Source: Squalus acanthias
Lineage: Eukaryota
Direction of reading: 5' to 3'
Length of the DNA: 64,000 nt
Assembly (NCBI GenBank): GCA_030390025.1
Contig: CM059432.1
Location: 97,652,001-97,716,000, forward strand
The notes under the pieces are model-generated. The model did not search any database, was not told where the DNA came from, and worked only from the letters and a program-made list of their open reading frames with translations. Made by a program: the position numbers and the translations under genes. Shown here piece by piece: positions 16,718 through 29,386 of this stretch (positions within the stretch are counted from its first letter, which is position 1; each line of letters opens with the position of its first letter).

Positions 16718-18344
16718 TGTAGAATTCGCAAAATTATCGCGATTTTATAAAAATAAGAAGGAGACATAAAGTTTCGTATAAACAGCTTTATTTCAGCAGA
16801 ATGCTGTCAGGTTTCAAAACGGACACAAACAGCCTGTAAAATGGCCGCCACGCCTCGTGGCAGAAAGTTCTAGACTTTCAGTAGGCAGACAAGATGGCGT
16901 TTCAATAAACATTTCAGCAAGATCGAACAGGACTCAGCACATTTGAGATAATGACAAGACATGATGGGTTTGCATTTTAAACATAAATACTGAAATCGGT
17001 CTCCCAGGTGCAAACAAGGGCTATTGTACTGAGCGATCAAGGACCCATCCAAAGACATTAATATGCAAAATCCCCACGGCTCTACGATGAGAGAGCCGTT
17101 CGCGGGTACTCACAGCAAGCATTTGGAAGCCCCAAAACCCCTCCAGGGAGACTACTAGCCGGTTCCACAATGGGAGAAATATTAACGGGTACTCAGACAG
17201 TCACAAGTGTCACCGAAACCCATTAAAGACTGAGATCACCCCATACAAGAAGTTTGAGCACCAAAACCCTGACAAAAGATAGACATTAAGATTGGACGGG
17301 AAAATAGGAATTACAGCACTATAACTGTAAAGTACAACCGTCCATCTTTCTCTTGCTGCTTTGACTCGCTGGAAGGCTGCTGAACTTTTATTCTCTTGCC
17401 TGACGACTCTGGACTCTGATCCGCTAGGATCAACCTCGTGGCTTGCCGCGAAGATCTGTGGAGAACTAGGCTGCGAAGGCCTGTAAGCGGGTGCACCATC
17501 CCGAGAAGTCGGTAAACGGTGTTGGAATCGAAGGCCCGAGATGAGACGAGATGAGATGAGTAGAGAAGAAGACGACCACACGTGCCGCCACGGTCAGTAA
17601 CCCCGACCGTGCCCGAAAATCAACCACTTCTTCGAATTCTATCGGCTACTCCACAACTGACCCAGGAAGACTGTTTTTCGAATTTTACAGGCAACCGGTG
17701 TGAGGGCACAGGAAGACTCTTCTTTGAGTGGTGTCCGAACTCTGAAAATCAACACAGATCTTCATGGCCGCAGGCGGTTCAGCCTACTAGCCGGAGCAGA
17801 AACGAGTAAACAAGTGAGGTGCAGAGACCCTTGACCAACACGTGAGTGGTCAGGTGCGGTGGCGAAAGCATCCGAACATCGATTTAGAATCCTCCGAATT
17901 GTCCCGAGTGGTGAGCATGAGTCTCGATCCTACAAATCTAGATTAGGACAGGTATTGATAGGGGAGGGTTTAAGTTTTAAGGATAATTATAATGTGTGTC
18001 CCCTTTTACGATGTGTCGTGCGCTCCTCGTTTCCCTAAAATTAGTTTCATAACTGTGTGTAAGTTTGTACTGTCATTAATCTGTGCTTATGACATGTATC
18101 TCGTAATCTTGAATAATATGCAATAAAGATTTTCCATTTCGCACTATTCAACCGGGTCTACCTGAGTTTTCTCTGCATTATTGCTCTCGCACCTAAGTCC
18201 AGTGTCAGAACCGTAAGGGCGAGTGGGTCGAACCACTCACAGGTGTCTAGTGTTACCAGGCTGGCTGGAGACCAGAACAGGCAACAAGGCCTAACCCCGC
18301 ACTAGCACCCAGGCTAAGCACAGAGCCACACGTCACCCCTTACA
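16718..18344 (+). repeat. 5' LTR (1627 bp, subfamily A)
   Basis: TGTAGAATTCG..CCCCTTACA; TATA-like 17320-17325; AATAAA 18122-18127. Confidence 0.95.
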
Positions 18345-18349
18345 GATAA

Positions 18350-18367
18350 TGGCGACCACGAAGGGAC
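18350..18367 (+). promoter_or_regulatory. Primer binding site, tRNA-Arg(UCG)
   Basis: TGGCGACCACGAAGGGAC is the complement of the vertebrate tRNA-Arg(UCG) 3' end GTCCCTTCGTGGTCG-CCA; 5 nt downstream of the LTR. Confidence 0.85.
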
Positions 18368-18402
18368 ACTGGCAGTGAGAAAATAATGTGTTAGACCCTG
18401 GT

Positions 18403-27305: not shown

Positions 27306-27742
27306 ACAGACAAAATGGCATCACTCCAGTTTTCCACGTGCGCCTCGGAATTGTTGTAATCGATCGTGATTTTTCTCAGAAACTGTAATTAAGTTTGGAA
27401 CTCCACCTATTTAAGAGTTGGTTTTGATTATTTTGATTTGGTGTTGTTGAATATGATTGTTTGGTTGTTTTTGTTTTCTTTTCCCTTGAATAAAAAAGAA
27501 AAATATGCATATGCAGGTGGTGCGAGAGGCATCGGCCTGGTTCCACCTGGAAGGAAATGCACGCGGTGTAAGTTAAAGGCAAATGCTGCCTACGGTGTTA
27601 TAAGGATGTAATTTTCCTGGGAAATAAGGACGACACGGAGACCCTAGATAGTTTTAAGTTATGGGAATTTTTGGATATGGAGAATCGAGATAATATTGCT
27701 CACCACAATGTTTTTGATACGATAAGCGGAGTTATTCGCATC

Positions 27743-27754
27743 AACAGGAGGGAC
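27743..27754 (+). promoter_or_regulatory. Polypurine tract
   Basis: AACAGGAGGGAC immediately before the 3' LTR; identical in the provirus end at 63625-63636 (minus). Confidence 0.8.
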
Positions 27755-29386
27755 TGTAGAATTCGCAAAATTATCGCGATTTTATAAAAATAAGAAGGAG
27801 ACATAAAGTTTCGTATAAACAGCTTTATTTCAGCAGAATGCTGTCAGGTTTCAAAACGGACACAAACAGCCTGTAAAATGGCCGCCACGCCTCGTGGCAG
27901 AAAGTTCTAGACTTTCAGTAGGCAGACAAGATGGCGTTTCAATAAACATTTCAGCAAGATCGAACAGGACTCAGCACATTTGAGATAATGACAAGACATG
28001 ATGGGTTTGCATTTTAAACATAAATACTGAAATCGGTCTCCCAGGTGCAAACAAGGACTATTGTACTGAGCGATCAAGGACCCATCCAAAGACATTAATA
28101 TGCAAAATCCCCACGGCTCTACGATGAGAGAGCCGTTCGTGGGTACTCACAGCAAGCATTTGGAAGCCCCAAAACCCCTCCAGGGAGACTACTAGCCGGT
28201 TCCACAATGGGAGAAATATTAACGGGTACTCAGACAGTCACAAGTGTCACCGAAACCCATTAAAGACTGAGATCACCCCATACAAGAAGTTTGAGCGCCA
28301 AAACCCTGACAAAAGATAGACATTAAGATTGGGCGGGAAAATAGGAATTACAGCACTATAACTGTAAAGTACAACCGTCCATCTTTCTCTTGCTGCTTTG
28401 ACTCGCTGGAAGGCTGCTGAACTTTTATTCTCTTGCCTGACAACTCTGGACTCTGATCCGCTAGGATCAACCTCGTGGCTTGCCGCGAAGATCTGTGGAG
28501 AACTAGGCTGCGAAGGCCTGTAAGCGGGTGCACCATCACGAGAAGTCGGTAAACGGTGTTGGAATCGAAGGCCCGAGATGAGACGAGATGAGATGAGATG
28601 AGAAGAGAAGAAGACGACCACACGTGCCGCCACGGTCAGTAACCCCGACCGTGCCCAAAAATCAACCACTTCTTCGAATTCTATCGGCTACTCCACAACT
28701 GGCCCAGGAAGACTGTTTTTCGAATTTTACAGGCAACCGGTGTGAGGGCACAGGAAGACTCTTCTTTGAGGGGTGTCCGAACTCTGAAAACCAACACAGA
28801 TCTTCATGGCCGCAGGCGGTCCAGCCTCCTAGCCGGAGCAGAAACGAGTAAACAAGTGAGGCGCAGAGACCCTTGACCAACACGTGAGTGGTCAGGTGCG
28901 GTGGCGAAAGCATCCGAACATCGATTTAGAATCCTCCGAATTGTCCCGAGTGGTGAGCATGAGTCTCGATCCTACAAATCTAGATTAGGACAGGTATTGA
29001 TAGGGGAGGGTTTAAGTTTTAAGGATAATTATAATGTGTGTCCCCTTTTACGATGTGTCGTGCGCTCCTCGTTTCCCTAAAATTAGTTTCATAAATGTAT
29101 GTAAGTTTGTACTGTCATTAATCTGTGCTTATGACATGTATTTCGTAATCTTGAATAATATGCAATAAAGATTTTCCATTTCGCACTATTCAACCGGGTC
29201 TACCTGAGTTTTCTCTGCATTATTGCTCTCGCACCTAAGTCCAGTGTCAGAACCGTAAGGGCGAGTGGGTCGAACCACTCACAGGTGTCTAGTGTTACCA
29301 GGCTGGCTGGAGACCAGAACAGGCAACAAGGCCTAACCCCGCACTAGCACCCAGGCTAAGCACAGAGCCACACGTCACCCCTTACA
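27755..29386 (+). repeat. 3' LTR (1632 bp)
   Basis: Direct repeat of 16718-18344; roughly 17 substitutions counted by eye plus one extra ATGAG unit. Confidence 0.95.

Follow-up and report, generated by a model that had tools for sequence, protein, structure and literature searches.

A disabled provirus of an abundant, probably shark and ray retrovirus family with a deep canonical-side reverse transcriptase and a predicted F-type envelope

Layout and condition of the provirus

The window, by which we mean the whole stretch of 64,000 nucleotides that was analysed, contains on its + strand a provirus of the form LTR-gag-pro-pol-env-LTR at positions 16718-29386 (Table 1). Its coordinates in a first-pass annotation held up, as did its architecture: Pfam found, in order, zf-CCHC, retroviral protease, RT, tether, RNase H, integrase zinc finger and integrase core, and the layout is that of canonical Retroviridae, with PR-RT-tether-RH-IN in Pol. 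The two LTRs are identical in 1610 of 1627 aligned columns (99.0%, against about 99% noted at first) and differ by 17 substitutions, 12 of them transitions (K2P 0.0105), plus 5 nt in length. Elsewhere in the window, two solo LTRs related to these are bounded by perfect 4-bp duplications (CATG/CATG and GACT/GACT), and we therefore read the flanks of the provirus, ACAT/ATAT, as a 4-bp duplication with one change. The putative primer-binding site presumably matches the 3' end of tRNA-Arg; no tRNA gene for comparison was found within the 64-kb window. The provirus was inserted within a Gypsy RT. This nesting, the gag-pol junction and the N-terminal arm of Env described below all came in addition to the first-pass annotation.

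Table 1 Features of the provirus and its flank in the window
Feature	Position	Strand	Remarks
Left target-site duplication, ACAT	16714..16717	+	Right copy 29387-29390 is ATAT, 3/4 match
5' LTR, 1627 nt, TG...CA	16718..18344	+	AATAAA at 18122
Putative primer-binding site	18350..18367	+	Begins TGG, five bases past 5' LTR; from sequence only
gag	18403..20170	+	Two frameshifts, one stop; start codon inferred
gag terminator, TGA-CTA-G, in frame with pol	20168..20174	+	Predicted stop-codon readthrough site
pro-pol	20171..24661	+	Two premature stops, 20546 and 23192
Protease	~20219-20512	+	Pfam
RT, motifs LPQG and YVDD	20789-21580	+	Pfam
Tether (RT_RNaseH)	21581-21985	+	Pfam
RNase H (second)	22115-22546	+	Pfam
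Integrase, zinc finger and core	22781-23482	+	Pfam; SH3-like end reaches ~23839
env, 783 codons	24954..27305	+	One premature stop, 26952
Probable Ig V-like domain in N-terminal Env arm	25206..25484	+	Weak support
Predicted F-type class I fusion core	25665..26918	+	Furin site RQRR 25932-25943; structure and profile searches
Env transmembrane segment	27135..27227	+	Hydropathy; downstream of premature stop; starts near env residue 728
Polypurine tract	27743..27754	+
3' LTR, 1632 nt, TG...CA	27755..29386	+

The gag gene is spread over three reading frames by frameshifts near 18545 and 19140 and has an internal stop at 19562. Together with the stops in pol and env this makes six disabling breaks (gag 3, pol 2, env 1), exactly as first counted. 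Judged from these lesions, none of the three genes of this copy is functional, and no Gag, Pol or membrane-anchored Env would be possible from it. The first-pass description of the provirus as young is uncertain, because the LTR divergence corresponds to 2.4 Myr at a mammalian rate (taken from PMC7947760) and to 24 Myr at a ten-fold lower shark rate (an assumption in PMC4422223).

The N-terminal part of Gag is rich in coiled coil, and a single CCHC zinc knuckle lies at 19919-19966. Blast returned no match between this Gag and that of the lokiretroviruses (lokiorterviruses, hereafter Loki; PMC7947760 and PMC9040795), and weak matches only to gamma and WDSV Gag. The sequence TGACTAG at the gag-pol junction occurs once on the + strand of the window, and UGA-CUA is described as a known leaky-stop class in PMC13517186; no strong or stable RNA structure was found 3' of the gag stop (z +1.08). 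Pol carries both a tether and an RNase H, a dual arrangement which is common to all retroviruses and not diagnostic for Loki, and ends, after the integrase SH3-like end, in a 273-aa tail rich in A, P, E and G.

Placement of the reverse transcriptase

We placed the RT in a set of 182 RTs, 52 of which entered the careful tree; 7 partial RTs were left out, and the trees were built without alpha/beta/delta/lenti, fish foamy-like or Odin references and without ERV-L, for which the search gave no reference. Loki was represented by three fish loci (L004-L006) from a metagenome motif scan; compared by eye, their RTs agree with the published Loki rows. Among viral contigs, the Loki motif scan gave three chance matches only, no close relative of the element was found in that collection, and the wider homolog search returned no Loki protein. 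The RT was 90% identical to P0001, 50-52% to ERVs of frogs and coelacanth that carry the annotation 'NYNRIN-like' (P0002, P0004-P0007) and are the nearest named RTs, and 43% to SnRV (reference L031, identical with P0024), the closest named virus; identity was 31-36% to foamy and gamma RTs and 32-33% to the three Loki references. The database name 'NYNRIN-like' was not counted as evidence of Loki affinity.

All three RT trees separated the element from Loki. A 160-row FastTree assigned it to the canonical side of this split with support 99; in the 52-row IQ-TREE, Loki was supported at 100/99 and the canonical side including the element at 100/98, and the 38-row RT+tether tree gave 100/100 and 99/99, respectively. 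The AU test rejected a grouping of the element with Loki at p=0.025, which is modest and based on three fish Loki rows. The RT motif is LPQG, whereas it is PFG in 24/24 Loki RTs of Wang and Han (PMC7947760). These RT results do not support the first-pass assignment to the lokiretroviruses, nor the extension of the Loki host range to cartilaginous fishes that was proposed with it. An integrase tree that has no CGIN1 row, from which 3 rows were dropped, and whose base is poorly resolved did not make the element sister to Loki.

On the canonical side, the element formed a clade with the frog and coelacanth ERVs (81/88 for RT; 45/96 for RT+tether), a moderate support. The RT tree placed it outside foamy+SnRV+gamma/epsilon (98/97), and the RT+tether tree placed it in a basal polytomy. 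Both the gamma+epsilon clade (100/99) and the foamy clade (100/100, in a sample without fish foamy-like ERVs) excluded its RT. Membership of Ty3/Gypsy was considered and rejected, the RT lying outside Gypsy in the trees and the RNase H being dual, not single. By its sequence, the RT belongs to a deep canonical-retrovirus, class-III-like branch together with frog and coelacanth ERVs.

Among the other parts of Pol, tether and integrase were relatively similar to Loki. The tether was 38-40% and the integrase 42-43% identical to Loki, against 21-38% to SnRV, gamma and foamy where alignable (SnRV: tether 27%, integrase 35%). For RNase H, identity was 26-27% to Loki and 20-28% to foamy.

The envelope and its N-terminal arm

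An Env model was built from the unbroken 666-residue frame with a 38-row alignment. Its mean pLDDT was 62, and the beta-rich core reached mostly 80-95. Foldseek against PDB listed paramyxo-/pneumovirus F in all of the matches given, the best being hPIV3 F (E 1.9e-10), and against BFVD it found the Env of walleye epidermal hyperplasia virus (E 1.2e-10) and WDSV Env (E 1.5e-8). With VIA, Env aligned to PIV5 F at Z 11.9 (350 aligned, rmsd 9.3) and to foamy Env at Z 9.9 (294 aligned, rmsd 5.3); paramyxo/pneumovirus F scored Z 10-12, and unrelated folds started at Z 5 and below. By structure search, Env has in common with foamy Env (PMC11468914) and paramyxo/pneumovirus F (Pfam PF00523) a three-domain F-type core, and it differs from foamy Env in having neither a leader peptide nor a large receptor-binding insert. 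These models predict that Env is a class I fusogen of the F type. This reading had been proposed in the first-pass annotation, whose furin site RQRR and missing CX6CC motif were also found as described.

Sequence searches of Pfam and PDB with Env returned nothing, Pfam Fusion_gly gave no match, and the Env profile did not match three gamma Envs. Fusion_gly matched both Loki Envs. In hhalign, Env matched Loki Env at 98.5% (E 1.6e-15, 347 columns, 19% identity; about 19-22% overall) and SnRV Env at 95% (E 2.5e-8), while foamy Envs matched the Env profile weakly. The Env core profile scored 68 bits against Loki Env and at most 22 against SnRV, foamy and WDSV Env; two independent sub-profiles, shark-only and frog-type, scored 36-42 against Loki Env and at most 13 against the other three. 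These comparisons indicate that Env is homologous to Loki Env. An F-like Env is nevertheless not a hallmark of Loki, because the Envs of snakehead, walleye and foamy viruses give such matches as well; it cannot serve to call a lokiretrovirus, as had been done at first.

Before the F core, Env has an N-terminal arm of about 225 residues, which Loki Env lacks. The middle of this arm probably has an Ig V-like fold, on which four weak and partly dependent lines agree, none of them significant alone. The region was modelled at low confidence (pLDDT 40); nearly all Foldseek matches listed for the arm model were domains of antibodies or of the Ig fold, the best at E 5e-3, and VIA gave Z 7.2 (rmsd 2.9 over 90 residues). 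Pfam Ig_3 gave E 0.51 in this Env and E 0.0085 in the homolog P0129, and Atlas gave 0.86-0.88. No Ig entry was matched directly when profiles of the arm were searched, and N-terminal arms compared pair by pair matched weakly, apart from P0154 with P0002. No Ig-like arm on an F-type retroviral Env was found in the literature covered, which did not extend to subscription papers.

The virus family and the origin of its envelope

Relatives of this Env were found mainly in cartilaginous fishes. All four matches of the first Env search came from skate or sawshark (53-75% identity), and among the 17 of 45 further profile matches that were looked up, 12 were elasmobranch, 2 frog and 3 unnamed. Near-identical env words occurred in at least 20 runs from seven organisms among the matches listed, and one DNA run contributed 16,375 distinct contigs with >=90% identity to the element, covering 30/30 bins. 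These results indicate a large, diverse and abundant ERV family, likely of sharks and rays. A chondrichthyan host, as first suggested, is likely from the affinities of the virus family. Wang and Han listed Loki in 0/6 chondrichthyan genomes, and 4 of these 6 species encode homologs of the element's Env; Pyxicephalus, the source of the best named RT match, is not marked Loki-positive there. The pol branch and the Env family of the element are linked by the gene model of P0002: it continues beyond Pol into an Ig-like segment, to which the N-terminus of P0154, a member of the Env family, is matched (E 2e-34).

Neither this lineage nor a chondrichthyan Loki was found described in the literature covered, subscription papers and bioRxiv supplements lying outside that coverage. 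According to PMC11089739, most chondrichthyan ERV RTs belong to clade III, and PMC13524379 announces that its own vertebrate ERV analysis will be reported elsewhere. RTs of this family may already be present, unnamed, in clade Huo/III data sets.

Several resemblances to Loki could suggest that the element is itself a lokiretrovirus, which would be the first from a cartilaginous fish. Its Env is homologous and by profile score closest to Loki Env and has an RXKR-type cleavage site, the N-terminus of Gag is likewise rich in coiled coil, the RNase H is dual, the UGA-CUA junction recurs in both Loki loci read (L004 and L005), and tether and integrase are relatively Loki-like. We consider this reading very improbable in the face of the three RT trees, the AU test and the LPQG motif. 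The element is also without the long region that precedes RT in Loki (the RT motif of L005 stands at residue ~755 of a 1745-aa Pol), its RT is 33% identical and its Env arm has no Loki counterpart; the host class was Loki-negative in the six genomes mentioned.

Another reading is a recombinant origin: long ago, a class-III-like gag-pol would have captured the env of a Loki-like virus, and the Ig-like arm would have been gained later. By profile score, Env is much nearer to that of Loki than to those of SnRV, WDSV and foamy viruses, and env swapping is frequent in anamniote ERVs according to bioRxiv 2021.11.23.469661, which concerns gamma-type Env only. Yet identity to Loki Env is low, the Loki-like junction and tether lie upstream of env and are not explained by one env swap, and the SnRV, WDSV and foamy Envs, which have long insertions, may simply evolve faster; we regard such a capture as possible but rather unlikely. 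Similarly doubtful, in our view, is that the element is an ERV of the SnRV clade (clade Huo/class III ERVs; PMC6001957 and PMC4422223) with features ordinary for that clade. SnRV shares a canonical-type RT, a stop between gag and pol that keeps the frame, a single zinc knuckle and coiled coil in Gag, and its Env is likewise of the F type, extends far at the N-terminal side and shows a faint V-set match at the N-terminus; the prevalence of clade III RTs in Chondrichthyes fits as well, and monophyly of the focal clade with SnRV was compatible with the AU test (p=0.17). Such monophyly was absent, however, from both free trees, in neither of which SnRV was sister to the element: SnRV went with gamma/epsilon plus foamy in the RT tree (98/97) and with gamma/epsilon in the RT+tether tree (93/86). 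Its tether and integrase are also distant, its junction is UAG-GGC (WDSV also has UAG) against UGA-CUAG in the element, its Env reading frame has 1134 codons against 783, the primer-binding sites match at 12/18 positions at best, and no accessory ORF was found between env and the 3' LTR of the element. Among the frog and coelacanth ERVs, nearest by RT, frog-type Envs are about 19-24% identical to that of the element.

We describe the locus, with considerable confidence, as a disabled provirus of an abundant ERV family, likely of sharks and rays, that combines a deep canonical RT with a predicted F-type Env bearing a probable Ig-like attachment arm. Active relatives would be infectious retroviruses of aquatic vertebrates. 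In these, reverse transcription would be primed by a tRNA and integration would leave a 4-bp duplication, Gag-Pol is predicted to arise by readthrough of the UGA-CUAG stop, and Env would be cut by furin at RQRR and then refold like paramyxovirus F. Paramyxoviruses have a separate attachment protein, whereas the element has a single glycoprotein gene; because its genome holds no second one, the Ig-like arm is predicted to be the likely receptor-binding or attachment part.

As to how these traits came together, we lean slightly towards inheritance, with the F-type Env, the UGA-CUA junction and the Loki-like tether being ancestral traits kept by the branch of the element and by Loki, over capture from a Loki-like donor. 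A more far-reaching proposal, which we offer as a conjecture with less chance of being right than of being wrong, is that the family is the earliest branch on the canonical side and a link between Loki and the crown. It would have kept the F-type Env, UGA-CUA readthrough and an intact-looking tether, the ancestral retroviral Env would have been F-like and later replaced by the gamma/beta type, and the Ig-like arm would be a built-in attachment module. In PMC7947760, Wang and Han did not decide between four scenarios for how retroviral Env arose, because they observed Loki Env to be without similarity to canonical Env, and a 2024 structure paper set foamy Env apart from orthoretroviral Env. A canonical-side Env that is homologous to Loki Env speaks, together with the F-type matches of the Envs of SnRV and walleye viruses, for common descent from an F-type ancestor, and the scenarios of Wang and Han become testable. 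The presence of a predicted F-type Env alongside a canonical-side RT hints that retroviruses may originally have had an envelope of this kind.

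Envelopes matching the F-type profile

The profile built on the Env family of the focal provirus, whose predicted fold resembles that of paramyxo- and pneumovirus F, was matched by the envelopes of two fish retroviruses. Snakehead retrovirus Env (reference locus L031, 6131-9535) aligned with it at an hhalign value of 93-95%, and walleye dermal sarcoma virus Env (L034, 5962-9648) at 92%. The N-terminus of the snakehead retrovirus Env additionally showed a faint V-set match (E 0.14). A literature search for the F-type match of these two envelopes found no published statement of it.

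Pieces of the same Env family were also observed in three database gene models (P0124, P0127 and P0140), joined there to the host domains Niban, C2H2 zinc fingers and cadherin. These fusions are probably annotation chimeras, and possibly exonised Env.

Gag-pol junction of the Loki loci

Both lokiretrovirus reference loci in which the gag-pol junction was read carry UGA-CUA there (L005, 3730-3736; L004, 7653-7655, minus strand). This is a type II readthrough context, and retroviruses are absent from the available part of its listing (PMC13517186).

Nested and related insertions in the window

A Gypsy RT is interrupted by the focal provirus: the Gypsy Pol match broke off at 29386 (residue 247) and was picked up again at 12969 (residue 251). 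The near-perfect palindrome in Gypsy pol, to which a piece at 975-1105 is related, is probably a MITE.

Repeats and related elements in the window
Feature	Position	Strand	Details
Gypsy element	10900-31460	minus	RT interrupted by focal provirus
Near-perfect palindrome	29776-30132		in Gypsy pol; 174-nt arms, 99%; 9-nt spacer
Eukaryotic LSU rRNA fragment, short	31547-31684		adjoins Gypsy 5' end; Rfam
Inverted solo LTR, related family	12970-16701		~79% to focal LTR; perfect GACT duplication
Related solo LTR	41098-42710		84%; perfect CATG duplication
Related provirus, 3' end	61986-64000	minus	LTR 80%; PPT and 3' UTR
DDE_Tnp_4 (Harbinger-like) transposon	3900-8000 and 31700-35900		one pair of copies in inverted orientation; 84-96%
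Tandem repeat	59003-59325		125-bp unit; 2.6 copies

Among the related elements, the provirus continues beyond the window edge, and the inverted solo LTR, which is split by a LINE RT fragment (~13220-15290), lies in the same Gypsy RT as the focal provirus, 16 bases away from it. The closeness of two related insertions in one Gypsy RT may reflect chance or target preference.
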